From an uncultured Candidatus Saccharibacteria bacterium (GTDB lineage: Bacteria; Patescibacteriota; Minisyncoccia; UBA6257; 2-01-FULL-56-20): a stretch of 64,000 nucleotides of DNA. Shown here piece by piece: positions 33,218 through 52,694 of the stretch (its first letter is position 1; the number at the start of each line of letters is the position of its first letter). The DNA lies in contig OZ246418.1 in assembly GCA_965231155.1 (NCBI GenBank), positions 174,850 through 238,849 of the forward strand. Reading direction: 5' to 3'. The notes below the pieces were generated by a model. It did no database searches, was not told the DNA's origin, and was given only the letters and a program-made list of their open reading frames with translations. The position numbers and the translations under genes were made by a program.

Positions 33218-34768
33218 TCAACTCTTCTCCTCGAGGAGCTTCCGCTTCAGATCGCGAACTCCATCGACCCAACGATCGATCGAAGTCAGGGCAACCTGCC
33301 CAAACTTCGGGTCAGCCAGAATGCTGCTCCGGAACTCCGCACGCTCGAAGTAACTCACGTGAGCCCAATCTCGGAAGGCCAGGATCTCAGCGGGCGTGAG
33401 CGCATCACCCGCATAGTACGGCTCAGACTCGTAGGCGTACTGGGAGTGTCCGATCCACCCAGGACCACCGGGACGAGCCGGCAAAGGATAGCCTGAAGCC
33501 ACTCCCTGACGGTAGAGCTCCGACCCCGGAAGAGCCTGCGTGCAGTACATATTCACGAACCGCGTGTTCAACTGACACGCCAGTTCATATGTCTCCTGCA
33601 GGCTCTCTCGAGTATCTCCGGGCAACCCGAAGATGTAGTTGGCACCGACATAGGCACCCGCGGCGTGAATCTGATCGACCACGCGTTGGATGTCGCCCTC
33701 ACCGAACTTCTTGTCCTGTCCGGAGCGGACTTTCGAGTTGGCGGCTTCGATACCCAACCCGAACCAGTAGATGCCTGCTCGACGAGCCGCCTCCAGAAAG
33801 CGCGGCTTGCAGGTGTCGACTCGAGCGTAACACCAGAAGTCCAACGAATCCCCGAAACGTTCGGCGATACCATTGGCGATGGTGATGACATGCTCGGCGT
33901 TCAGCGCGAACATCTCGTCGGGAATCTTGAAGTACTTGATTCCGTAGGTCTCGACGAGATGCGTCACCTCCTCCACAAAAAACTCGGGACGGAGGAAACG
34001 GTAGCTGTTACGCCTGACATTGCCCCGATCCATGAGACTCTCTCCAGCCCGAAAGGGGGCCTGGATATTGCAGAAGTCACAGTGGAAGGGACAGCCCTCG
34101 ACCGAATAGGGATTGGCATACCCCGCCCGTTCCGCGTAGGGACGGTAAAAGGTGTGCCAGCCGTCGGCATGATACACCCGCGGATCCATGAGAGCCCAGG
34201 CCTCCGGAGAGACCCTTTCCTCATTCAGATCGAGCAGCGGCGCCGGTGGGTTGTGAATCGTCTGGCCATCCTTGCGGTGCCAGAGACTACGAACTTTGTC
34301 CAGCTCGCCACCACCCTTGAACGCCTGGACCAACTCATAGGCGGTGATTGGTCCTTCGCCGTCGCAGACGAAATCGATCGGCTCCTCCGCGAGCGTTCTC
34401 GCCGGAAGCGCTGCCGGATGAGTTCCCGAGAAAACAATGGGAATCTCCGGACACAGATCCTTGATCGCCTGAGCGTAGGCCCGGGCAGCCGGCATGGTGT
34501 GAGTGCTGGACGACGGATTGAACCCGTAGACCGGCAACCAAACCAATCGCGGCTTTGCATCTTTGACCACCCGAGCCATCAACTCGGATGTGTACCCGAG
34601 AATCGTAGCATCGAGCAATCCCACGCCGAGACCTCGACGCAGAAGGTAGCTGGCCATAAACCGTGCCTTGGCAGGCGGCTCGGTATGGTGTTCGCGCGCA
34701 AAGCCTTGATAGACCTGCACGAGATTGCTAGGAATGACGAAAAGAACGTCGAGCTTCCTGCTTTCCAT
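33218..34768 (-). CDS. B12-binding radical SAM protein (class B, cobalamin-dependent radical SAM; putative sugar C-methyltransferase/epimerase)
   Basis: N-terminal Rossmann-like B12-binding region (DVLFVIPS...) and CPFHCDFC (Cx3Cx2C) radical-SAM cluster motif; 516 aa. GC is about 58-60%, against about 46% in the flanks. GGAG RBS 7 nt upstream of the start. Confidence 0.75.
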   Translation of the reverse strand: MESRKLDVLFVIPSNLVQVYQGFAREHHTEPPAKARFMASYLLRRGLGVGLLDATILGYTSELMARVVKDAKPRLVWLPVYGFNPSSSTHTMPAARAYAQAIKDLCPEIPIVFSGTHPAALPARTLAEEPIDFVCDGEGPITAYELVQAFKGGGELDKVRSLWHRKDGQTIHNPPAPLLDLNEERVSPEAWALMDPRVYHADGWHTFYRPYAERAGYANPYSVEGCPFHCDFCNIQAPFRAGESLMDRGNVRRNSYRFLRPEFFVEEVTHLVETYGIKYFKIPDEMFALNAEHVITIANGIAERFGDSLDFWCYARVDTCKPRFLEAARRAGIYWFGLGIEAANSKVRSGQDKKFGEGDIQRVVDQIHAAGAYVGANYIFGLPGDTRESLQETYELACQLNTRFVNMYCTQALPGSELYRQGVASGYPLPARPGGPGWIGHSQYAYESEPYYAGDALTPAEILAFRDWAHVSYFERAEFRSSILADPKFGQVALTSIDRWVDGVRDLKRKLLEEKS

Positions 34769-39108: not shown

Positions 39109-40086
<978 letters not shown>

Positions 40087-40164
40087 TCAAATATATCTAA
40101 AGAGAAGATGACACCCCATCCTAAAATTGACTACTAGTATATTTTATTTTATAAAAATACACAG

Positions 40165-40227
40165 TACCAACTCCCAAAGAGTTGGATTGATTAACCCTTA
40201 GCCCTCCCCCAAAGGGAGAAAGGAGTG
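40165..40227 (+). repeat. 63-nt conserved leader, copy 1, upstream of the ORF at 40231
   Basis: GTACCAACTCCCAAAGAGTTGGATTGATTAACCCTTAGCCCTCCCCCAAAGGGAGAAAGGAGT. Hairpin 1 is CCAACTC-CCAAA-GAGTTGG; hairpin 2 is CTCCC-CCAAA-GGGAG, overlapping the SD GGGAGAAAGGAG. Identical to 40923..40985. Confidence 0.9.
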
Positions 40228-40230
40228 ACA

Positions 40231-40818
40231 ATGGAACAGGGAATCCCCGTGAGATTCTCGCCGTGGATGCGACTCAGTGCGGTAGAAGCTGCCACCAAGG
40301 CTGGCAGCAGAAACCAAATGACTGAAACCTCTCTCTGGGTCTACTGGGTTCTGACCCGAGGAGGAAAAACACGGCTGGATCTCTTCGACGTTGGGAGAGA
40401 TCTCTTCTACAGTAATCCGTGGAGAGGTGCTCCTCCACAACCAAAGAAGAATCCCGTACTTAGTCGAGTGCTGGTCGTCGGCACAAACGCCGAAGTCAGT
40501 ACTATCCTCCAAGGAAACCCGCTGGCTCGAAAGTCTCCTAGCTATCAGGCATACAAGAAGGCTTTCGATCAGGGCATAAGACGTCTCAAAGTCGACAGTG
40601 TCGGAACCCTGGAAGGCTTCTGGCCTGTCTTCATGGGCGTTGATGATTTTCTTGGAAGGCCGGACGACCGGAGTTTGCCTTCTCTGGTAGTCACAACTGG
40701 ATTCATGAGAAACTACCCTCGCATAGGGGGTGAGACTCTTGAAGTTGCGGATCGACTCAAAGACATCTGCAAACTCTGCAACGTTCCAATTGAATTTATC
40801 CCTTCTTTTTGTTCGTAA
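40231..40818 (+). CDS. hypothetical protein (GC-rich, no family recognised)
   Basis: 196-aa ORF (track uses a GTG start at 40225; the ATG at 40231 has better SD spacing). High GC, own terminator. Confidence 0.5.
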   Translation: MEQGIPVRFSPWMRLSAVEAATKAGSRNQMTETSLWVYWVLTRGGKTRLDLFDVGRDLFYSNPWRGAPPQPKKNPVLSRVLVVGTNAEVSTILQGNPLARKSPSYQAYKKAFDQGIRRLKVDSVGTLEGFWPVFMGVDDFLGRPDDRSLPSLVVTTGFMRNYPRIGGETLEVADRLKDICKLCNVPIEFIPSFCS

Positions 40819-40850
40819 GCCGAAGATTTAATCTATCTCGGCTTTTTTTA
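40818..40850 (+). terminator. intrinsic terminator after the hypothetical ORF
   Basis: AGCCGA...TCGGCT stem followed by TTTTTTT. Confidence 0.6.
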
Positions 40851-40922
40851 TTAATCACGAAAAGCAGTTGCTCCATTTTCATAATTTGACACTTTATATA
40901 TATTATGTTATTAACCTATCGG

Positions 40923-40985
40923 TACCAACTCCCAAAGAGTTGGATTGATTAACCCTTAGCCCTCCCCCAAAGGGAGAAAGGAGTC
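40923..40985 (+). repeat. 63-nt conserved leader, copy 2, upstream of the NUDIX ORF
   Basis: 63/63 identity with 40165..40227; ends 4 nt before the ATG at 40990. Confidence 0.9.
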
Positions 40986-40989
40986 CGAG

Positions 40990-41634
40990 ATGACAAGCTC
41001 ACAAGAACGGTTCCTGGCTCTGGCCAAGGAGCCAAGGTTCAAGGGCTGGCGCATGGTCGGCGAACCGGAACTGGGAGCAAAGATTCCCTTTTTCGGCCAG
41101 GAACTGAGGTACAAGCTCGAAACCGGAAACGGAACCGAGGAGTACGTTTCCCTCCTCAGGCATTTTGGCTGGGTCGTGGTCTTCGGCGTCAACACTGAAG
41201 GCATGGTGGTGACACTGTGCCAGTGGAAGCCTGGCGTGAACTGCGCCTCTTGGGAGCTCCCTCCGGGAGGAATCGGTCGCGTCAAAACCGATCTCTCTTC
41301 GGATGAGCTTCTCAGGAAAACCCAGGAAGCGTATACTCGCGAAACCGGATACGCTGGCGGCACTTGGAACTACCTCGGTCACGTCATGATCGAGAGCGGC
41401 AAGTATCGCGGCGCAACGGTCGACGACCACGGACTGAAGGCTCACATGTACCTCGCAACTGGTCTGGAGAAGGGAGCGGAAGCTCGCAATCCCAACCCGA
41501 ACGAGATCATGGAAACGATTCTCGTCCCCTTGGACGAGTTCCGCGAGATCGTGTTGAGCCCGAATCGACTCTTCAAGGAAGCCTCGGCTCTGCCTTGCGC
41601 TCTTCTTGCTTTGTCGAAACTCGGCAGGTTGTAG
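40990..41634 (+). CDS. NUDIX hydrolase, ADP-ribose pyrophosphatase (NudF)-like with degenerate Nudix box
   Basis: WELPPGGIGRVKTDLSSDELLRKTQEAYTRETGY (Nudix-box-like, RETGY in place of EExGU), and NudF-like N- and C-terminal layout. GC-rich. Confidence 0.55.
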   Translation: MTSSQERFLALAKEPRFKGWRMVGEPELGAKIPFFGQELRYKLETGNGTEEYVSLLRHFGWVVVFGVNTEGMVVTLCQWKPGVNCASWELPPGGIGRVKTDLSSDELLRKTQEAYTRETGYAGGTWNYLGHVMIESGKYRGATVDDHGLKAHMYLATGLEKGAEARNPNPNEIMETILVPLDEFREIVLSPNRLFKEASALPCALLALSKLGRL

Positions 41635-41652
41635 CAAATCTGCCTTTATGCA

Positions 41653-41689
41653 AAGCCTTAGGAGAAATTTTCTCCTAAGGCTTTTTTAT
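41653..41689 (+). terminator. rho-independent terminator after the NUDIX gene (palindromic, possibly bidirectional with gmd)
   Basis: Perfect 16-bp palindrome AAGCCTTAGGAGAAAA/TTTTCTCCTAAGGCTT followed by TTTTTAT. Confidence 0.8.
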
Positions 41690-41712
41690 ATATTTCTCAC
41701 AGAAAGACTCTC

Positions 41713-42714
41713 CTAACTCTTCGTCGCGCCCCACTTCTCCAGATCAGCGTCCATCATAATCTTTACCAAGTCATCAAATTTAGTCTTTGGTTCCCAATCA
41801 AATTTGTTCTTTGCTTTCGACGCATCGGCAATTAAGTCTTCTACCTCGGTAGGACGATAGTAGCGAGGATCGATCTCTACATACTGCTCCCAGTCATTGA
41901 TCCCGGCGTGTTTGAAAGCCGCTATCAGAAAATCTTTTACTGAATGACTCTCGCCAGTGCCAATCACATAGTCATCAGGTTCTGACTGTTGCAACATCAT
42001 CCACGCTGCTTCCATATATTCTGGTGCATATCCCCAGTCGCGCCGTGCCTCCAAATTCCCAAGATATAATTTCTTATCCAATCCAGCAACGATTCGCGCA
42101 ATCCCCCGAGTAATCTTTTTAGTGACAAATGTTTCTCCCCGACGAGGACTTTCGTGATTAAAAAGAATGCCATTGACTGCAAAGATATTGTAGGCCTCCC
42201 GATAGTTCTTAGCCGTATGATACGCAAACACCTTGGCACAGCCATATGGACTTCGCGGATAAAACTGAGTCAGTTCATTTTGGGGAGGTGGGGTAGCACC
42301 AAACATCTCTGAAGAAGAAGCTTGGTAAAATTTTATTTTCTTTCCCGTGTTTTCCTCAAAATCTTTAATAGCCTCGAGTACACGCAGTGCCCCGACACCA
42401 ACAATCTCTGCGGTATATTCAGGAATATCAAAGCTCACCCGGACGTGAGACTGCGCACCGAGATTATATATTTCGTCTGGTTCAATCTTATAAATCAGCC
42501 TGCGGATTGTGTTGGAATCAGAAAGATCGCCAAAGTGGAGCTTGAATGTCGCTCCAGAAAGATGCGGATCTTGATAAATATGATCAAGTCTGGCCGTATT
42601 GAACGTTGAAGCCCGACGCATGATGCCATGCACCTCGTACCCCTTCTGGAGGAGAAGTTCTAATAAGTAAGAACCATCCTGACCAGTGATACCCGTGATG
42701 AGGGCTTTTTTCAT
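41713..42714 (-). CDS. gmd: GDP-mannose 4,6-dehydratase
   Basis: [31 protein letters not shown] and a conserved GMD core; 333 aa. Confidence 0.9.
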
Positions 42715-43396: not shown

Positions 43397-44863
43397 TTAT
43401 TTTCTTATTGGAGCTGAATCTGTCTTAAAAATAAAGCTCGCCAATGCCAAAAAGAAAAAGAGGTTTATATAGATTGGCAAAACATCAAAGAGGATGAGGC
43501 CCTGCACAAAATATCCAACCGGCACGACACCAATCAATCCCCAGGCCCAAGGAGAAAGGTAAAACTTCTCTCTTGGTGTCTGCGGTAGATCATCTTTGAA
43601 ACCTCGAATTTTCACTCCAAAGAACTGGAGATAGAAGACAATAAATATACTCAAGAAACTCAACACTCCAAGCAATCCTGTTTCCGCGAGGTAATCAAAG
43701 AAAACACTGTGCGCCCGATCAAACCAAGTCTCACTATTCTGACCAGGAACAAAATGCCTCTGATCGAAATGGCGATCAAAAACAGTACTGAAATTTTCTG
43801 GACCCCAGCCTAAAAGAGGGCGCTCCTTAAATCCTTGCCAGGCACTATTCCAAGTCCAGAAACGGGTCTGAGCAGTTTGCTCACTGAAACCAACATTGAA
43901 AAGCCTTCCGATTGGCAACTTCTGAATAGCGGGGGTGCGACCCAAAGAGAAAAGCGTTCCCACGCCTAAAACTGCAAAGAGAAGGATTCCTCCTGTCCAC
44001 TTTCGACTTGGCTTATGGGTAATAGCCATATAGACCAGGAATGCAAATACCGCGGCTAGAAGTCCCAAGAATGCTCCGCGTGTCTGACTAACTAAAAAGA
44101 AGAAAAAGAAAATGAAAACAGTAGCAATATAAAGTAACGCCTCCAAAGACCGATTCTTGAATCGTCGTTCAGACCACAAGAAAAAAGCATACGCCATACT
44201 AAACATTAAATATGGCGCGACATAGGCCGGATTTCCTAGAGATCCCTGGAAGCGTGTTCCGGTAAACAATGCTGATAGCGTCTTAGGCAGTTGGTCTTTT
44301 GGAGTCCCCTGGTATGGGGTAATGAAACGACTAATGAAATTATTACAGGCAGTTATATTGCCTTTGAAATCATACGTGCAAAACCAGCTCTGATTATGAA
44401 GGAAAAGGAATCCAAAGACACCATAAAGAATCATGAGACAGGCGGCCAAAAGGAACATCTTCAAGGCCCAAATCCAGTCTGTTTTGGTGCGCAAGGTGAG
44501 TACGGCAAGCACAAAAAAGGCGTAGTAATGAAGCATCTGGAACGCACCCTCACCTCGTTCAAAGTTTGACCAGAAAGCACCATTCACGTCGTACGCAAAA
44601 AGAGCGGCGAGAAGGAAAGACAACACAAAAGCAGAAACTGCCAAAAATAGTGGTCTTGATAACAAGTCTTTGATCGCTTCTCCTGATTCTTTGGCGCTGG
44701 CCTCAAAAGCCCACCACAGCAACCAGGCGATCGCCGAAAGTGATATCATCGTCCGAAAGAAGTAATATTTTCCCCCAATAAAAGGGAAGAATGTGGCGGT
44801 GAGTACGATGACGACTGAGAAAATTGAAGCGTACAGAAACCACCGAGAAATCTTAAGGAGCAT
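43397..44863 (-). CDS. O-antigen ligase / Wzy_C family membrane protein
   Basis: 488-aa multi-TM protein with a periplasmic loop containing LVSQTRGAFLGLLAAV (Wzy_C-like). Confidence 0.55.
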   Translation of the reverse strand: MLLKISRWFLYASIFSVVIVLTATFFPFIGGKYYFFRTMISLSAIAWLLWWAFEASAKESGEAIKDLLSRPLFLAVSAFVLSFLLAALFAYDVNGAFWSNFERGEGAFQMLHYYAFFVLAVLTLRTKTDWIWALKMFLLAACLMILYGVFGFLFLHNQSWFCTYDFKGNITACNNFISRFITPYQGTPKDQLPKTLSALFTGTRFQGSLGNPAYVAPYLMFSMAYAFFLWSERRFKNRSLEALLYIATVFIFFFFFLVSQTRGAFLGLLAAVFAFLVYMAITHKPSRKWTGGILLFAVLGVGTLFSLGRTPAIQKLPIGRLFNVGFSEQTAQTRFWTWNSAWQGFKERPLLGWGPENFSTVFDRHFDQRHFVPGQNSETWFDRAHSVFFDYLAETGLLGVLSFLSIFIVFYLQFFGVKIRGFKDDLPQTPREKFYLSPWAWGLIGVVPVGYFVQGLILFDVLPIYINLFFFLALASFIFKTDSAPIRK

Positions 44864-46590: not shown

Positions 46591-48120
46591 ATGAAACCTG
46601 TCACTGTTCTTATCGTGCTTGATGGTTGGGGAATCGGTCACAACGATGACTCAAACCCGATGCGCAAAGCCAAACTACCCACCTTCGACTGGCTCTACGA
46701 GCACTTTCCGGTCACCAGTCTTCAGGCTTCGGGGATTAGCGTTGGTCTACCGTGGGGCGAAACTTCAAATAGCGAGGTTGGTCACTTAACTATTGGTTCG
46801 GGGAAGATCGTCTACCAGTACTACCCTCGAATTACATTGGCTATCCGCGACAATAGTTTTTTTGAAAACCAAGCTTTCCTCCAAGCCTGTGAACACGCTC
46901 GAAAAAATAACTCGGCGGTCAATATTATGGGACTTCTTAGCAAAGGAAATGTCCATGCCTCCGTTGAACATATGCGCGCGATGATTAAATTAGTTGAGGA
47001 CCAGAAGGTTCCCTACAAACTTCACATCTGGGCTGATGGCAAAGACACTCCACCAAAAAGTTTTGAAGATTTAATAAAAAATGTGCCTCGCGAAAAAATC
47101 GCCACCATTATTGGTCGCTATTATGCCATGGACCATGGTCGCAACTGGCGCTCAACTGAACGAGCCTACCAGGGACTTACCACTGAAAGTGGTGAGGTGG
47201 TGAACGATTGGAAACCAACGCTCGACAACTTATACGATCAAAAATTATCAGAAGAGTTTCTCCCGCCCCTCCGCCTCCAACCCGGTGTGCCAATTCAAGA
47301 TAACGAAGCAATTATCTTCTGCAATTTTCGCGAAGATGGCGTCCGACAAATTGCCGAGGCGTTTCTCCTGCCAAACTTTGATAAATTTCCGGTCAAAAAA
47401 TTCCAGAATCTTTTTGCGGTGACGATGACTCGTTATGAGAATACTATTACTGCACCCGTGGCTTTTCCACCAGATGATGTAAAAAATCCATTGGGCAAAG
47501 TGCTTTCGGATAACAATCTTTCTCAACTACGTCTGGCCGAGACTTATAAATACGCGCACGTCACCTACTTCTTTAATGGTTACGAAGAGAAACCTTATCC
47601 AAATGAATATCGCATCCTTGTCCCCTCACTCACTACCCCTAAGATCGACGAGCATCCAGAGATGATGGCCACTGCCATCACCGATCGTGCCTTGGCGGCG
47701 ATCCAGGACCACTCTTTTGATTTTATTCTTATCAACTACGCCAATGGCGATATGGTCGCCCACACCGGAAACTATGATGCCGGAATCAAAGCGGCAGAAG
47801 TGATCGATCAAGAAATTGCCCGTATTCTCAAAGTGGCTCTTTCTGCCCCAGCCAATATCCTCATTACCTCAGATCATGGCAATCTTGAAGAAATGTTCAA
47901 TCCCCTGACTGGACGATACGAAACTCAACACGATCCCAGTCCAGTTCCTTGTTATCTTATTGGTCCAGGTCTAGAAGGAAAAAAATTTATTAACCAAGAT
48001 ACCTATGCGCAAGAAACATTAGGGATTCTTTCTGATGTGGCACCGACAGTTCTCCATATTCTTGGAGTTACGCCACCACCAGATATGACTGGACACAATC
48101 TTCTCGAAAAACTAGTATAA
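46591..48120 (+). CDS. gpmI: 2,3-bisphosphoglycerate-independent phosphoglycerate mutase
   Basis: VLIVLDGWG, SEVGHLTIGSG and a C-terminal metal-binding region; 509 aa. Confidence 0.9.
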   Translation: MKPVTVLIVLDGWGIGHNDDSNPMRKAKLPTFDWLYEHFPVTSLQASGISVGLPWGETSNSEVGHLTIGSGKIVYQYYPRITLAIRDNSFFENQAFLQACEHARKNNSAVNIMGLLSKGNVHASVEHMRAMIKLVEDQKVPYKLHIWADGKDTPPKSFEDLIKNVPREKIATIIGRYYAMDHGRNWRSTERAYQGLTTESGEVVNDWKPTLDNLYDQKLSEEFLPPLRLQPGVPIQDNEAIIFCNFREDGVRQIAEAFLLPNFDKFPVKKFQNLFAVTMTRYENTITAPVAFPPDDVKNPLGKVLSDNNLSQLRLAETYKYAHVTYFFNGYEEKPYPNEYRILVPSLTTPKIDEHPEMMATAITDRALAAIQDHSFDFILINYANGDMVAHTGNYDAGIKAAEVIDQEIARILKVALSAPANILITSDHGNLEEMFNPLTGRYETQHDPSPVPCYLIGPGLEGKKFINQDTYAQETLGILSDVAPTVLHILGVTPPPDMTGHNLLEKLV

Positions 48121-48126
48121 GAATAC

Positions 48127-48480
48127 ATGATTCGTGTTCTCGCGGCCCTTATTGGAAATACTTTTGCCCTCCTCTTGTCCCAGGCGATTGTTCCCGGCCT
48201 TCAACTTTCGCCCAATTTCTTTGACACTCTGATCCTCGCTCTGGTTCTTACCGGGTTAAACTTTTTCCTTAAACCAATCCTCCATCTCATTTTCGGTCCA
48301 ATTATCATCCTCACCCTAGGAATTGGAGCCTTCGCAGTGAATATGGTGATAATTTATATTCTTGACATTCTCTCTAAAGCGATTACGATTCAAGGGAATC
48401 TGATGATAACGTTGCTTTTCACCTCGTTCATCGTCAGCCTGGTCAACACTATCATCCATTCGACTCATAAAAAATCATGA
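48127..48480 (+). CDS. DUF360 / phage-holin-4_2-like small membrane protein
   Basis: 117 aa, 4 TM helices, YvlD-like. Confidence 0.6.
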   Translation: MIRVLAALIGNTFALLLSQAIVPGLQLSPNFFDTLILALVLTGLNFFLKPILHLIFGPIIILTLGIGAFAVNMVIIYILDILSKAITIQGNLMITLLFTSFIVSLVNTIIHSTHKKS

Positions 48481-48695
48481 TCTTTAGCCTCCTTCAACTC
48501 ATTACCGCAATTGCAATCATTACCCTTATTCTCCTTCAGGAGCGTTCCAGTGGTGCCTCTGGTCTTTTGGGTGGCGGAGATTCTACTCACAGTTTTTATC
48601 AGGCACGTCGTGGCGTGGAACGCATGATCTTCCGATCAACAATCGTTCTCGTTGTCGCCTTTGCTGTTCTCTCGGTTTTCCAGTTGTCGGCGTAA
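48477..48695 (+). CDS. secG: preprotein translocase subunit SecG
   Basis: 72 aa, two TM helices, LLQERSSGASGLLGGGDS motif. Confidence 0.8.
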   Translation: MIFSLLQLITAIAIITLILLQERSSGASGLLGGGDSTHSFYQARRGVERMIFRSTIVLVVAFAVLSVFQLSA

Positions 48696-48805
48696 AAAAA
48701 TCTCATCCCCACTTCGCGGTGGGTTTACTATTTCCCCTTCTCTCGTCATACTTTATAGAGAAAGTTTTTAGTGTCTCTTGTATCACCTAATTTCTTGCTA
48801 CTTCT

Positions 48806-50434
48806 TTGATCTATCGTTTTAAAAAAATCTGGCTCGCCTTAAATAACCAAGAACGCCAGTACGCCGTCTTTTTTTCTATCATCGGTGGTATTGCGCTCTG
48901 TGTTGTTCTCTGGCTCCTCTTTACCGCAATCACTACTCCCGCCCCCGCAACTGGAGGATCTTTCAAGGAAGGTGTTGTCGGCCAACCAGCTAGTCTCAAT
49001 CCACTCCTCTCAAAAAATGAAGCAGAAGCGGATCTTTCCCGTCTTCTTTTTTCTCCCCTCTCGCAGCTAACCGAAAGCATTACCCTCTCTAAAGACGGAA
49101 CTTTCTGGACAGTCCGCCTCAAGGAAAACCTTTCCTGGCACGACAAAGAACCAATCACCAGCGATGATATTATTTTTACCATCCAACAGATTCAGGACCC
49201 TAGTGCCAATGCCCCACTCTTCAGTACTTTTCAGGGCGTGAAGACTGAACGCCTTAGCGAACGAGAGGCGAAGGTAATTCCTGCGTCACGCACCTCACCG
49301 TTTCTTTTTGAAACACGCATCGCTGATTTACAAATTATTCCCCGACATATCTTTTCCTCAATTCCTCCCCACAACTGGCTTCTTTCTGAGTACAACTTGA
49401 AACCGATTGGCAGTGGTCCCTACAAATTCGAGAAACTTATCCTCCAAAACGATGGTTTCCTTGAAAGCTATACACTCTCTTCGTTCCAACAAGGGAATCT
49501 CTCTCATACTCCCTATATCTCAACCTTTATTGTCCGTTTCTTTAAAAATAAACAGGAGGCTGAATCGGCTTTTCGCTATGGTCGCATCGACGGCATTGGA
49601 GGTGTCGATCCATACGAAGCAAAATCTATCAGTCGTCCAGCCCAAACACTTCTCTACCAAACCAATGGATACTACGCGGTTTTTATGAATCAAAGCCGAA
49701 ACGAACTCCTACGAGAACTATCTATCCGCAGAGCATTAAATAATAGTGTTTCCCGAAAAGAATTGGCCACTAAAGTTCTTAATGACTACGGCCAACCCAC
49801 ATTCGGCCTTATACCCACCACCGAAACCACCACGCTTTCGGACAGCCAGGTGATACTGACCGCTCTCGGTCTCACCAGAAACGACAGTGACAAACTCGTA
49901 GAAGCTAATGGTCAGGGCATTAAACCGATCGAACTTATCGTCCCGGAACTGCCCTTCCTCGAACACACCGCAGAGATTCTTAAAACTTCTTGGGAAAAAC
50001 TTGGATTTACCATAACCATAAAAACACTGCCAATCGAAACAGTAGTCAATGAAACAATCCCGCGTCGTGATTACGAGATGCTTTTGTTTGGAAATATTCC
50101 AAAACCTGCTGAAGATCTCTACCCATTCTGGCACTCTTCTCAGATCTTCCATCCCGGACTAAATCTTAGTCTCTATAAAAATAGCCAATTAGATAGCTTA
50201 TTAACTGAAACAAGAGCAACCCCAAGCAGTACTGAAAGAATGACGACCCTGAAAAAAGCTGATCAGATCATACAAAACAATCTACCGGCAATCTTCCTCT
50301 ACTCTCCTGCTTATGTCTATCTGACCGTCAAACAAGTTGGTGGCGTTACTCCAACAAGTTCTTTCTCTTCTCCGGCTGATCGATTTTATGATGTCGCCGA
50401 GTGGCACCTAAGAACAAAACGGATACTTAAGTAA
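48806..50434 (+). CDS. ABC transporter substrate-binding protein (family 5, peptide/nickel-type)
   Basis: N-terminal anchor plus an SBP_bac_5-like fold; 542 aa. Confidence 0.65.
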   Translation: MIYRFKKIWLALNNQERQYAVFFSIIGGIALCVVLWLLFTAITTPAPATGGSFKEGVVGQPASLNPLLSKNEAEADLSRLLFSPLSQLTESITLSKDGTFWTVRLKENLSWHDKEPITSDDIIFTIQQIQDPSANAPLFSTFQGVKTERLSEREAKVIPASRTSPFLFETRIADLQIIPRHIFSSIPPHNWLLSEYNLKPIGSGPYKFEKLILQNDGFLESYTLSSFQQGNLSHTPYISTFIVRFFKNKQEAESAFRYGRIDGIGGVDPYEAKSISRPAQTLLYQTNGYYAVFMNQSRNELLRELSIRRALNNSVSRKELATKVLNDYGQPTFGLIPTTETTTLSDSQVILTALGLTRNDSDKLVEANGQGIKPIELIVPELPFLEHTAEILKTSWEKLGFTITIKTLPIETVVNETIPRRDYEMLLFGNIPKPAEDLYPFWHSSQIFHPGLNLSLYKNSQLDSLLTETRATPSSTERMTTLKKADQIIQNNLPAIFLYSPAYVYLTVKQVGGVTPTSSFSSPADRFYDVAEWHLRTKRILK

Positions 50435-50640
50435 TAAGGTTGACGGATCCCTTTGCTGGTTGTAGTATTATCGTAACGTTTGAAACTCTCCTTTATGTCT
50501 TTTGTTTCTTTTTCGTCCACGAAGGAACTCGCCGCTTAGGCAGTTTTTAGGGCGTTATTAGAAATTCGAGAGAAAGATTTCAGAGGGGATCGCTTGCTGA
50601 GGTGGCCCCGCCTAGGCGGGACAAGAGTTTAAAAAGTTAG

Positions 50641-50723
<83 letters not shown>

Positions 50724-50810
50724 CTAGAATTAGGAAGATAGTAGTAAAATAATGGTCGATAATCATATCTTTCCTATTCGTTATTAAGTTACATTATTAA
50801 ATAATTATAT

Positions 50811-52694
50811 ATGTCAGAAACAACACAACCACACAATACTCAACCGCCAGCACGGCCGGTTCGGTCAGTGCGACGGAGTGGACCTGGTACATCATCGACT
50901 CCTTCCCATTCCGGGAGAGACTCTCGACACGGTGGCCAGTCTCACCCACCTCGCAGGCAGACAGATCATGGACGACGAAACTTTTCCGCACGTCCTGCAA
51001 TAGCCACTACAAAACCAAAAGAAATTGAGGACGAAAACGCGGTAAAATTCACACCTCTCGGTGGTCTCGAAGAAATTGGACGCAACTGCTCCTTCTTCGA
51101 GTATAAAAACCAGATTGTCGTCGTCGACGTCGGTATTCAGTTCCCCGAGGAAAATACTCCTGGAGTTGACTACATCATTCCAAACGTTGCCTATCTCGAA
51201 CAAAGGAAAGCAGATGTCCAGGCGATTATCCTTACTCATGGCCACTACGATCACATGGCTGCGATTCACTATGTCATCGAAAAACTTGGCAATCCAATTA
51301 TCTACACCTCGAAATTCACACGTGCCTTAGTTGAAAAACGCCATGAGGAGTTCACTAATGCACCAAAACTTCGCTTCATCAATGTCGAAGTTGGACAACG
51401 GGTAAAACTCTCTGAAGACTTCACCGCTGAATTCTTTGAAGTCGAGCACACCATCCCTGAATCTCTTGGTTTTATCCTCGAAACTCCCGTTGGCAATATG
51501 GCCAGCTTCGGAGACTTCCGTTTAGATTTTGACCGCAACGGTAAAGTTCGCAACATGGAGGTCTTTGATATGCTCAAAAAACGAGGTATTCATACTGCCT
51601 TTATGGATAGCACGAATGCTGATATTGCTGGCAAGGCTGCTTCCGAAGAAACTGTCGAGGAAAACCTCGAGATGCTCATCAAAGGTGCGAAGGGTCGCGT
51701 CATCATTGCTGCCTTCGCCTCTCTTGTTGATCGTATTTTAGAGATCATCAAAATTGCTGAAAAACTTGGGCGCAAAGTGACTATGAATGGTCGCTCCATG
51801 AAAACTAACATGGAGATCGCGAAGCAACTCGGCTACCTCAAGGAAAGAAAGGATCTCCTCTTCCCGCTTGAGGACATAAATAAATACAAAGACGAAAAGG
51901 TTCTCCTCCTTACCACTGGCACCCAGGGAGAAGCGAACGCTGGACTGATGCGCATCGTAAATGGTGAACACCGTGTAGTAGCCTTGAAACCAACTGACAC
52001 TGTTATCTTTTCCTCCTCTGTTGTTCCAGGAAATGAGCGAAGCGTGCAGTTCCTCACCGACAATGTGGCTCGTCAGGTTGATCAGGTCTACAACTCAAAA
52101 CTCCTCGACATTCACGTCAGTGGCCACGTCCACACTGAGGATGCCAAGATGGTTATCGAACGAATGCAACCAAAGTTCATCGTGCCAATCCACGGCTACT
52201 ACTTCAAACGAAAGAGCTACCAAAAGATTGCTGAGATGGCTGGCCTTAAAAAAGAACAGGTCACCCTTATGGACAACGGACAAGTTCTCTCGATGACTAA
52301 AGATGCAGTTAAAGTCCTCGATCGTACCATTCCCTCTTTCTACATTATGGTTGATGGTCTAGGAGTCGGTGACGTCGAAGAAGTGGTCTTGCGTGATCGC
52401 CGCGCCCTCTCGCAAGAAGGCATGGTAGTGGTAGTGATTACTATCGATCGACGTAACGGAAAACTTCTGAAAAGTCCCGATATTATCTCTCGCGGATTCA
52501 TCTACCTCAAAGAGAACCAACCTCTTCTCGAAGAAATGCGCAAGAAAGTCCGCAATTTAATCGCGCGCATCCCAGCGAATCAACCGATTGATAGCGAGTA
52601 TGTGAAAGGTATTGTGCGTGATCAAATGGGTCAGTTCATCTATCAGAAGACTCATCGTCGCCCGATGATCCTACCGGTCGTGATCGAGATCTAG
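50811..52694 (+). CDS. rnj: ribonuclease J (metallo-beta-lactamase/beta-CASP) with about 75-aa basic low-complexity N-terminal extension
   Basis: ILTHGHYDHMAAI motif and beta-CASP motifs; 627 aa. Confidence 0.9.
   Translation: MSETTQPHNTQPPARPVRSVRRSGPGTSSTPSHSGRDSRHGGQSHPPRRQTDHGRRNFSARPAIATTKPKEIEDENAVKFTPLGGLEEIGRNCSFFEYKNQIVVVDVGIQFPEENTPGVDYIIPNVAYLEQRKADVQAIILTHGHYDHMAAIHYVIEKLGNPIIYTSKFTRALVEKRHEEFTNAPKLRFINVEVGQRVKLSEDFTAEFFEVEHTIPESLGFILETPVGNMASFGDFRLDFDRNGKVRNMEVFDMLKKRGIHTAFMDSTNADIAGKAASEETVEENLEMLIKGAKGRVIIAAFASLVDRILEIIKIAEKLGRKVTMNGRSMKTNMEIAKQLGYLKERKDLLFPLEDINKYKDEKVLLLTTGTQGEANAGLMRIVNGEHRVVALKPTDTVIFSSSVVPGNERSVQFLTDNVARQVDQVYNSKLLDIHVSGHVHTEDAKMVIERMQPKFIVPIHGYYFKRKSYQKIAEMAGLKKEQVTLMDNGQVLSMTKDAVKVLDRTIPSFYIMVDGLGVGDVEEVVLRDRRALSQEGMVVVVITIDRRNGKLLKSPDIISRGFIYLKENQPLLEEMRKKVRNLIARIPANQPIDSEYVKGIVRDQMGQFIYQKTHRRPMILPVVIEI

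Follow-up and report, generated by a model that had tools for sequence, protein, structure and literature searches.

Within the window, by which we mean the whole 64-kb stretch of DNA analysed, two plus-strand single-gene units lie between the minus-strand genes fcl and gmd. Each unit is headed by a copy of the same 63-nt leader. The features of the locus are, in order:

39109..40062, minus strand: fcl, GDP-L-fucose synthase (Pfam Epimerase and NCBIfam GDPFucSynFcl, E = 1e-86), divergent from the ORF1 unit
40127..40155, plus strand: predicted promoter P1 of the ORF1 unit (TTGACT-17 nt-TATAAA, sigma-70-like, read by eye), with the +1 at about 40163-40164
40164..40226, plus strand: leader copy 1, with hairpin 1 at 40167-40185, hairpin 2 at 40204-40218 and the Shine-Dalgarno sequence (SD) AAAGGAG at 40219-40225 (exact repeat, fold and descriptor match)
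40231..40818, plus strand: ORF1, 195 aa, which belongs to an uncharacterised family of alpha/beta proteins
40817..40851, plus strand: intrinsic terminator of ORF1, with a U-run after the stem at 40817-40844 (fold -11.2 kcal/mol, z = -3.1)
40886..40914, plus strand: predicted promoter P2 of ORF2 (TTGACA-17 nt-TATTAA, sigma-70-like, read by eye)
40922..40984, plus strand: leader copy 2, with hairpin 1 at 40925-40943, hairpin 2 at 40962-40976 and the SD at 40977-40983 (exact repeat and fold)
40990..41634, plus strand: ORF2, 214 aa, a divergent NUDIX-fold protein of NudF/ADP-ribose-pyrophosphatase-like type whose Nudix box is degenerate
41652..41684: bidirectional terminator common to the convergent ORF2 and gmd, a perfect 16-bp palindrome between A/T runs (fold -22.9 kcal/mol, z = -5.7)
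41713..42714, minus strand: gmd, GDP-mannose 4,6-dehydratase (TIGR01472, E = 4.5e-154), convergent with ORF2

The segments 40164-40226 and 40922-40984 form an exact direct repeat (63/63 identical), whose edges are fixed by the bases that differ between the copies on either side (40163/40921 and 40227/40985). The first-pass annotation of this DNA had reported the repeat; its identity stands, but the coordinates given for it were shifted by +1. Only these two copies occur in the window, which covers 64 kb of the 808-kb source contig, even when 3 mismatches are allowed, and shuffles gave an expectation of 0. As originally described, the copies precede non-homologous genes, each with a predicted promoter and terminator. 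Comparisons between the two units by blastn, tblastn and blastp matched the leader alone, ruling out the longer duplication including coding sequence that had been raised as a possible source of the repeat.

Each copy spans approximately the predicted +1 to just past the SD, and both P1 and P2 put the predicted +1 at or near the base with which the repeat begins. A consensus promoter scan reported neither site. The same scan returned two weaker plus-strand sites 5' of copy 2, starting at 40876 and 40878, 8-10 nt further upstream. The distance from SD to ATG is 5-6 nt in ORF1 and ORF2 alike.

RNA folding of the leader returned the two hairpins with CCAAA loops that had been read from the letters, CCAACTC-CCAAA-GAGTTGG and CTCCC-CCAAA-GGGAG. 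The minimum free energy is -19.1 kcal/mol (z = -2.9), and the fold is unchanged in both downstream contexts. Rfam gave no match on the leader, either at the gathering threshold or at E <= 10, which rules out a known RNA family.

An assembly artefact was also considered. The ORF1 segment might have been joined at the 63-nt repeat without truly lying between fcl and ORF2, or it might do so in part of the population only, for example next to an excised or alternative form. In Logan, the short-read de Bruijn assemblies of three samples are interrupted precisely at the repeat, 31 nt (one k-mer) ahead of the first base that is unique downstream of it, and exact look-ups gave no record of a Logan contig with ORF1. 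Formally, the graph would also allow an ancestral P1-leader-ORF2 form together with a circle of 758 bp. However, such breaks are the signature expected of a genuine repeat in the reads, and the branch at the repeat end shows two different downstream sequences in the reads. Furthermore, the 3' flank of ORF1 is continuous into P2 and P1 is continuous into fcl, and therefore no linear path other than the order in the window accommodates every segment. Ordinary reads are also longer than the repeat, which lies wholly inside the 808-kb contig at NCBI. We thus regard an artefact as highly improbable.

ORF2 belongs to a large and highly conserved family, with more than 200 homologues at 57-68% identity. 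Its first assignment as NudF-like was borne out by both profile and fold. A profile of the family, searched against the PDB with hmmsearch, matched the Act/ADPRase of B. methanolicus (E = 4e-7, residues 29-207) and the NudF of Bdellovibrio (E = 0.01). In the AF2 model (pLDDT 85), ORF2 has the NUDIX alpha/beta/alpha fold, and Foldseek against the PDB placed ADPRases and NDP-sugar hydrolases on top (E 1e-10 to 1e-7, TM-score 0.5-0.65), with YffH at ranks 29-32 only. ORF2 thus shares the NudF-type fold, the N-terminal beta domain and profile similarity with NudF/ADPRase enzymes and NDP-sugar hydrolases, such as that of Bdellovibrio (5c7q) and the GDP-mannose hydrolase of E. coli (YffH/NudK, 3o69). 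Unlike these enzymes, it has no match to the NUDIX models of Pfam (PF00293) or NCBIfam, which recognised 0/35 family members even at E <= 10, and its Nudix box is degenerate. The canonical GX5EX7REUXEEXGU is replaced in the family alignment by PPGGIGK-(insertion)-YL(K/R)ETGY. In ORF2 itself, …EAYTRETGY stands for REUXEEXGU, together with a 6-residue insertion, and the family retains only one Glu of the REUXEE block (E118).

The two units had been seen as foreign cassettes that split the gmd-fcl pair. Our survey of related loci does not favour this view. An ORF2 homologue lies between fcl and gmd on the opposite strand, in the order fcl(-)/ORF2 homologue(+)/gmd(-), at at least 12 distinct loci in Patescibacteria. 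Therefore, this is the normal local arrangement for ORF2, not a foreign insertion. In addition, gmd or fcl lies within 2.5 kb of the ORF2 homologue at about 30 of 55 distinct loci. The conserved fcl-NUDIX-gmd order strengthens the analogy drawn earlier with GDP-sugar NUDIX enzymes encoded beside gmd. Like Gmm/WcaH of colanic-acid clusters, ORF2 adjoins gmd and fcl; unlike Gmm/WcaH, it is on the opposite strand and has its own predicted promoter and leader.

The compositional difference that the first-pass annotation pointed out is real, with a GC content of 51.5% in ORF1 and 57.5% in ORF2 (GC3 0.70) against a backbone of about 45% (GC3 of fcl and gmd 0.36-0.45). Its reading of ORF2 as compositionally foreign did not hold. 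The ORF2-family gene is GC-richer than its flanks in 24/29 loci compared, and the excess is therefore a family trait, not evidence of recent import here.

The history of ORF1 appears to be different. In the syntenic relative L004, the order is fcl-ORF2 homologue-gmd-214aa-Wzy-RNaseY and ORF1 is absent, so the ORF1 unit is lineage-specific. Judged from this comparison of sequences, only the ORF1 unit, of the two, is an addition between fcl and gmd, and leader copy 2 is orthologous to the L004 leader. The core of P2 is also nearer than that of P1 to the promoter of the L004 orthologue, and P2 is likely the ancestral promoter. ORF1 had been described as unknown, which is right insofar as its family is uncharacterised but not in the strict sense of an orphan. 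A word-indexed search with ORF1 recovered the query alone, and an exhaustive phmmer search found 76 remote homologues besides ORF1 itself. These relatives and a confident AF2 fold rule out that ORF1 is a non-gene or a true orphan.

The structured, cis-acting nature proposed for the leader was corroborated in other Patescibacteria, where the same design of two hairpins with CCWAA loops and covarying stems recurs 5' of ORF2 homologues. Eight distinct variants were found, all upstream of ORF2-clade genes (the window, L004, L007, L012, L014, L046, L047 and L049). Each has two stem-loops, usually C-G closed, with a CCWAA pentaloop (CCAAA or CCTAA; 16/16 loops in the eight variants), of which 4/5 positions are invariant in both loops while the stems covary. 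The linker of 6-18 nt between the hairpins has no conserved sequence, and the 3' arm of hairpin 2 is, or directly precedes, the SD (GGAG). For example, the L004 leader keeps the design with the loops CCTAA and CCAAA, and an additional, compensating A...T pair extends its hairpin 2.

When whole leaders were aligned with MAFFT (A2, A3), the loops did not line up, and therefore loop-anchored segments of equal length (A5) were used. In this alignment 84% of cells pair, compared with 30-47% in slid controls, and 12/14 stem pairs change on both sides, a result reached by 0/500 shuffles; as the alignment was anchored on the loops and the instances were recognised partly by their stems, the result is partly circular for the inner four pairs. 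The motif draws its support from only eight distinct sequences, several with stems of 4-5 bp only. Independent minimum free energy folds recovered both hairpins in the window, L004, L049, L007 and L047, and in the first three of these an extra short helix covers part of the SD. For two of the leaders the fold was not better than that of shuffled sequences (L007, z = -1.3; L047, z = -1.0). Taken together, sequence comparison indicates that the leader is a real structured RNA. A palindromic operator, bound at the DNA level by a transcription factor, is unlikely, because the loop is kept and the stems vary, the opposite of a DNA-binding site.

A degenerate DNA pattern for the motif would give about 1e5 chance matches in public collections, so the genome and metagenome scans were made with the protein family. 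A descriptor search of both strands of 1.07 Mb of related DNA returned 17 matches (0 in 20 shuffles), all in leaders of the ORF2 family with the sole exception of the ORF1 copy. A covariance model (R1, built from A5 without the linker) split the instances with long linkers and found nothing new at E < 1. In the protein tree, the twin-hairpin (type-A) leaders fall in one clade, alongside some members with other leaders. Most ORF2-family genes carry other leaders, and therefore the gene can do without the motif. Our literature search found no description of the twin-hairpin motif or of the ORF2 NUDIX family.

The identical leader before two non-homologous genes, both self-contained with their own promoter and terminator, had also led to the idea of a modular mobile promoter/leader cassette or repeat element that spreads before unrelated genes. 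Against such spread, the window has no copies beyond the two, even at 3 mismatches, and in the 1.07 Mb of related loci the motif was found at no other genes than those of the ORF2 family. The promoters of the two copies differ as well. No inverted terminal repeats or short target duplications were found flanking the two units, exact leader probes had no match in viral contigs, and none of the inspected leaders of ORF1 homologues had the twin-hairpin motif. In its two copies, its lack of flanking inverted repeats and its absence from other genes, the leader is unlike MITEs, integron cassettes or promoter cassettes, for which multiple dispersed copies, terminal repeats or attC-like ends, and target-site duplications would be expected, and we consider mobility very improbable.

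Our preferred explanation is that the conserved leader RNA of ORF2 was duplicated onto ORF1 and controls translation. The leader is an instance of a conserved, hitherto undescribed tandem-hairpin motif that travels with one NUDIX clade in Patescibacteria, and to the whole, motif and explanation jointly, we give a probability of roughly 0.6. The 63-nt repeat would represent the complete 5' UTR of ORF2, from the predicted +1 to the SD. A second unit, consisting of P1, a leader copy, ORF1 and its terminator, would have come to lie as an addition between fcl and the ancestral unit of P2, leader and ORF2, and the perfect identity of the copies may result from recent duplication or gene conversion. 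With identical 5' UTRs, the mRNAs of ORF1 and ORF2 would be expected to respond to the same post-transcriptional signal. The most likely function is a translational control common to both genes. The leader would control translation initiation through access to the SD, and the 5'-proximal hairpin may also affect mRNA stability. A single bivalent effector could recognise both of the identical loops; this might be an RNA-binding protein that acts as a dimer, or a small ligand that forms a bridge between them.

The small ligand would make the leader a metabolite riboswitch of the tandem-hairpin type, which is a special case of the preferred explanation. A GDP-sugar, GDP/GMP or another substrate or product of the NUDIX enzyme would bridge the CCWAA loops and alter access to the SD. 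Such a switch would account for loops that hold 4/5 positions while their stems covary, for an SD within or beside hairpin 2, and for the tie to one enzyme family embedded among GDP-sugar genes. A close parallel is the guanidine-II riboswitch, in which guanidine acts on two ACGR loops and the associated genes encode guanidine carboxylase and SugE. [quoted passage not shown] Our leader resembles it (RF01068) in its tandem hairpins with an identical loop type, the linker of 6-18 nt, the location in the 5' UTR and the SD at hairpin 2. It differs in having CCWAA pentaloops instead of ACGR tetraloops, in lacking an Rfam match, and in its gene, a NUDIX hydrolase in GDP-sugar clusters. Moreover, the CCWAA loops have no self-complementarity of the kind that CG gives to ACGR, and it is not evident how a comparable kissing dimer would form. 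Very little conserved sequence is available to form a selective pocket, and most members of the ORF2 family do without the motif. A riboswitch is for these leaders an unlikely solution. Still more doubtful is the specific proposal of a new minimal riboswitch class, parallel to guanidine-II in its architecture, that would sense a nucleotide-sugar-related metabolite, control the NUDIX gene and have been co-opted by duplication for ORF1.

The other special case of the preferred explanation is an operator at which a dimeric RNA-binding protein represses translation, possibly the ORF2 product itself in an autoregulatory manner. NudF-type enzymes are homodimers, and the leader has a pair of equivalent hairpin loops, variably spaced, of which the second lies at the SD. 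The leader also co-evolves with its gene, in that leader types follow the clades of the protein tree, as expected if the product recognises its own leader. In the thrS operator of E. coli, the dimeric ThrRS binds two anticodon-like hairpins and represses translation. Our leader likewise has two similar hairpin loops, one of them beside the SD, and a homodimer could occupy both and keep the ribosome out; unlike the thrS operator, it shows no tRNA mimicry, the gene product is a NUDIX-fold protein, and protein binding is here conjectural. However, we know of no RNA-binding domain or activity in NudF-like proteins. In other clades this highly conserved protein is preceded by entirely different leaders, and it would have to be explained why ORF1 came under the same control. 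We therefore hold an operator of this kind to be tentative and rather improbable. A further translational system, the CsrA/RsmA-type leaders, which present GGA motifs in hairpin loops, one overlapping the SD, differs from ours, in which GGA occurs in the 3' arms of stems or in the SD only, never in the CCWAA loops.

The leader may also act with no specific effector, as a passive structural element or an RNA thermometer. The hairpins would then stabilise the 5' end of the mRNA and tune access to the SD, perhaps in response to temperature, and the loop would represent a duplicated extended SD-like sequence. Hairpin 1 begins 3 nt from the predicted +1, which is typical of a stabiliser, and the shortness and marginal stability of the stems recall thermometers. 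In hairpin 2, CUCC is paired with the GGAG of the SD. The sequence UAAGGAGG is the ideal SD, and part of the loop conservation, the WAA before GGAG, could reflect an extended SD of this sequence, not a recognition element. The pairing of an anti-SD-like CUCC with the SD in a short leader hairpin is shared with SD-sequestering thermometers such as ROSE and fourU. Unlike these, the leader lacks their sequence signature and any Rfam match to ROSE or other thermometer families, and it has a second, non-SD hairpin with the same loop, which is needless for a thermometer. A passive role leaves unexplained that this hairpin 1 keeps CCWAA in 8/8 lineages despite its freely changing stem, and we doubt such a role.

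To our knowledge, gene regulation in Patescibacteria (CPR) is almost unknown, and few regulators are recognisable. The leader adds a compact 5'-UTR motif, backed by covariation and absent from Rfam, which is tied to one highly conserved and unannotated NUDIX family. This family is linked to genes of the GDP-fucose pathway in many lineages, and GDP-sugar turnover may serve as a functional lead for it. With 63 nt and two loops to mutate, the leader is a testable regulatory element. The exact copying of a 5' UTR in front of an unrelated gene illustrates how a regulon grows in nature. Should the leader bind a ligand, the riboswitch design with tandem identical hairpins would gain a second example.

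For fcl, the consensus scan reported a promoter-like site on the minus strand (40090->40061), which suggests that fcl has its own promoter.

An undescribed tandem-hairpin leader, located next to the Shine-Dalgarno sequence (SD) and of a known general kind, is documented here from eight sequences. It accompanies a NUDIX family that lacks annotation and is conserved in GDP-fucose gene clusters of Patescibacteria. In the window, the leader of this family has been duplicated onto a second gene. Both genes, ORF1 and the NUDIX gene ORF2, lie between fcl and gmd, in the following layout.

39109-40062, minus strand: fcl (Pfam and NCBIfam)
40063-41712: interval between fcl and gmd, with two plus-strand ORFs inside
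40090->40061, minus strand: promoter-like site near fcl (promoter scan)
40127-40155, plus strand: predicted ORF1 promoter P1, sigma-70-like TTGACT-17-TATAAA (own reading of the sequence)
40231-40818, plus strand: ORF1, 195 aa
40886-40914, plus strand: predicted ORF2 promoter P2, sigma-70-like TTGACA-17-TATTAA (own reading of the sequence)
40990-41634, plus strand: ORF2, 214 aa
41652-41684: perfect 16-bp palindrome (one central base) bordered by an A-run and a T-run, between the convergent ORF2 and gmd
41713-42714, minus strand: gmd (Pfam and NCBIfam)

The leader is a direct repeat of 63 nt, 100% identical between its two copies (40164-40226 and 40922-40984). This confirms the exact repeat reported in the first-pass annotation, the coordinates of which were one base too far to the right. 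No further copies were found in the 64 kb with up to three mismatches allowed, and none in shuffles. Between the two units, blastn, tblastn and blastp found only the repeat in common, and thus it is not part of a longer duplication with coding sequence, a possibility raised with the original observation. Because the +1 predicted from both P1 and P2 is the first base of each copy, and the repeat ends one base past the SD AAAGGAG, 5-6 nt ahead of each ATG, the repeat likely represents the entire 5' UTR. P1 and P2 were not among the sites of a consensus promoter scan, which upstream gave only two weaker plus-strand sites, starting at 40876 and 40878. Both ORFs have terminators downstream. The palindrome at 41652-41684 (-22.9 kcal/mol, z = -5.7) is probably a bidirectional intrinsic terminator, able to serve ORF2 and gmd, and the minus-strand site at 40090->40061 suggests that fcl is transcribed independently.

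The two predicted mRNAs, of ORF1 and ORF2, have identical structured 5' UTRs. The leader RNA forms the hairpins CCAACUC-CCAAA-GAGUUGG and CUCCC-CCAAA-GGGAG, and a 4-bp outer helix (CCUU/AAGG) covers part of the SD. The minimum free energy (MFE) is -19.1 kcal/mol (z = -2.9), with the same fold in both downstream contexts.

Upstream regions of 55 distinct ORF2 homologues were inspected, and the twin-hairpin design was present in eight distinct sequences: the window and loci L004/41, L007/45, L012, L014, L046, L047/48 and L049/72 from other assemblies. Each has a first hairpin (stem of 4-8 bp, CCAAA or CCTAA loop), a linker of 6-18 nt without sequence conservation, and a second hairpin capped by the same loop. 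The 3' arm of hairpin 2 is the SD GGAG itself in L007, L012, L014, L046 and L047, and the SD follows directly 3' of hairpin 2 in the window, L004 and L049. The MFE folds of the latter three, each independent, place a short outer helix of different sequence over part of the SD. In an alignment anchored on the loops (A5), 84% of the cells pair, and 12 of the 14 pairs have changes on both sides, as far as eight loop-anchored sequences with some short stems allow, and with the inner four pairs partly circular, since the stems helped to identify the instances. None of 500 shuffles equalled the alignment on any of five measures, and pairing fell to 30-47% when the partner was shifted by 1-3 columns. 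The leader had no match in Rfam, and a full-text literature search found no description of the twin-hairpin motif.

A descriptor of two hairpins (each of 4 bp or more, including two or more G-C pairs, and with a CCWAA loop; linker up to 40 nt) was run over both strands of 1.07 Mb of related DNA. All 17 matches were leaders of the ORF2 family, their duplicate contigs and the ORF1 copy, with none elsewhere in the 1.07 Mb or in 20 block shuffles; single CCWAA hairpins outside pairs were at chance level. This restriction, together with only two copies in 64 kb and no matches in viral contigs, makes it unlikely that the leader is a mobile cassette, as was also proposed in the first-pass annotation. 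In the protein tree the leader carriers fall within one clade, indicating that the leader co-evolves with the gene. Some members of this clade have other leaders, and two other clades bear different conserved leaders. One of these (L013/L050, L019/L061/L080, L052, L058, L060, L065, L067) has a hairpin around CGGCAnnGUGUCG, then AGAACUUGCACAU, then the SD; in the other (L016, L033, L054, L066, L069) the leaders are short and include GTTCTTAAAC. A weak match to a linker-less covariance model (R1; 14.8 bits, E = 0.14) at window 44746-44791 (plus strand), inside an opposite-strand Wzy-like gene, is probably due to chance.

A tandem hairpin that is conserved and covaries, and whose loops are invariant, is thus located at the ribosome-binding site. 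The covariation in eight sequences and the identical 5' UTRs of ORF1 and ORF2 support the earlier proposal of a shared cis-regulatory RNA. From the sequences, we infer a post-transcriptional control, chiefly of translation initiation, common to both genes. As both hairpins keep the same loop while the stems drift, a bivalent reader would be involved, and not mere folding. One candidate, by analogy, is a small ligand bridging both loops. The leader has the architecture described for guanidine-II (PMC5558903), but its loops differ and are not self-complementary. Another candidate is a dimeric RNA-binding protein, similar to the thrS operator system; the NUDIX product, itself dimeric, might play this part. 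The leader may also act passively, as a stabiliser or thermometer, since WAA with GGAG(G) constitutes an extended SD and hairpin 1 may have arisen long ago as a copy of hairpin 2. That reading, however, accounts poorly for why the loop of hairpin 1 is conserved. The motif is small but cleanly testable.

ORF2 itself had no match in Pfam or NCBIfam. Its family is large and highly conserved (more than 200 proteins, 57-68% identity), annotated only as "hypothetical", and found in Sungbacteria, Falkowbacteria, Kerfeldbacteria and other Patescibacteria. The earlier NudF-like assignment holds at the fold and superfamily level. A 35-member profile aligns almost end to end with NudF/ADP-ribose pyrophosphatases of solved structure (E = 4e-7), and the AF2 model (pLDDT 85) matches ADPRases, a Bdellovibrio NDP-sugar hydrolase and the E. 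coli GDP-mannose hydrolase YffH. The Nudix box is degenerate (PPGGIG-(insertion)-YL[KR]ETGY), with only one Glu of REUXEE remaining.

Searching all fetched loci by tblastn with fcl and gmd revealed the order fcl(-)/NUDIX(+)/gmd(-) at no fewer than 12 different Patescibacteria loci (window 39109-42714, L004, L011, L016, L033, L035, L049, L053, L054, L063, L066, L074). About 30 of 55 distinct loci have gmd or fcl no more than 2.5 kb away from the NUDIX gene. The three genes form a conserved functional neighbourhood, which strengthens the analogy with Gmm and offers a functional lead, GDP-sugar turnover, for this unannotated family. The same recurrence contradicts the idea of foreign cassettes splitting a gmd-fcl operon. 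In GC content, ORF1 (51.5%) and ORF2 (57.5%, GC3 0.70) exceed the backbone of about 45%, but of 29 loci compared (L004-L039), 24 have an ORF2-family gene that is GC-richer than its flanks or the rest of the locus, often by 6-17 points and with raised GC3, in hosts that range from 33% to 57% GC. The composition is thus a family property and does not signal recent import here; it may stem from frequent transfer, from codon selection or from another cause. A second compositionally deviant gene of the glycosylation cluster, for a B12-binding radical SAM protein (33218-34768, minus strand, 516 aa; 58.7% GC, GC3 0.69, backbone 45% GC), is preceded by an AT-rich promoter region of its own and lacks the twin-hairpin leader. 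Several Patescibacteria-type loci carry the label "uncultured Gammaproteobacteria" (GTDB records L013, L015, L023, L025, L033), and the protein record P0003, from one such locus, is named "Anaplasmataceae bacterium" at NCBI; what genes they carry suggests that these MAGs are mislabelled or mis-binned.

The closest syntenic relative, a 378-kb JGI contig (L004/L041; fcl 81% and gmd 77% identical to the window), has the order fcl(-), ORF2 homologue(+), gmd(-), a 214-aa protein, Wzy and RNase Y. ORF1 is absent, indicating that the ORF1 unit is a lineage-specific addition. The twin-hairpin motif is also absent from the leaders of ORF1 homologues (L082-L088), and therefore ORF1 gained an ORF2-type leader in the lineage of the window. 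The L004 promoter resembles the core of P2 (…TTGACA…ATATTATGTTA…) more closely than it does P1, which suggests that P2-leader-ORF2 is ancestral and that P1-leader-ORF1-terminator was added between this unit and fcl. The perfect identity and the abrupt ends at both sides, coinciding with the functional UTR limits, argue for a recent event, whether a duplication, a recombination or a gene conversion. As a formal possibility, one crossover with a small circle that bore a single leader copy would leave direct repeats of just this kind on either side. The copy may have been kept because it supplied ORF1 with a working 5' UTR.

An assembly artefact is an unlikely explanation for this arrangement. 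Logan contigs from three samples (L001-L003) carry ORF2-gmd-… and start at window 40955, exactly 31 nt (one k-mer) ahead of the first base that is unique past the repeat. Such a break in the assembly graph shows that a repeat with two different continuations was present in the raw data. No ORF1-bearing Logan contig is on record for the same three sequencing runs, and cells with and without the ORF1 unit may coexist in the population.

ORF1 was an apparent orphan in a word-indexed search; exhaustive phmmer retrieved, apart from the query, 76 remote relatives, of which 20 had E <= 1e-10. The family shares the blocks FW…FF, TTG.MRNY..GGET and IP.E.I, and no relatives were found in Pfam, PHROG or PDB. 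The structural model is confident (pLDDT 91), with only generic flavodoxin-like similarity. The closest relative (P0122, 45% identity; L088 725-1204) is likewise an opposite-strand single gene, with an SDR epimerase/dehydratase on one side and a UDP-glucose/GDP-mannose dehydrogenase on the other, which hints that ORF1-type genes are also linked to nucleotide-sugar clusters. A more distant homologue (L086 1475-2041) is located upstream of iPGM-holin-SecG-SBP-RNase J, the neighbourhood also present in window 46591-52694.
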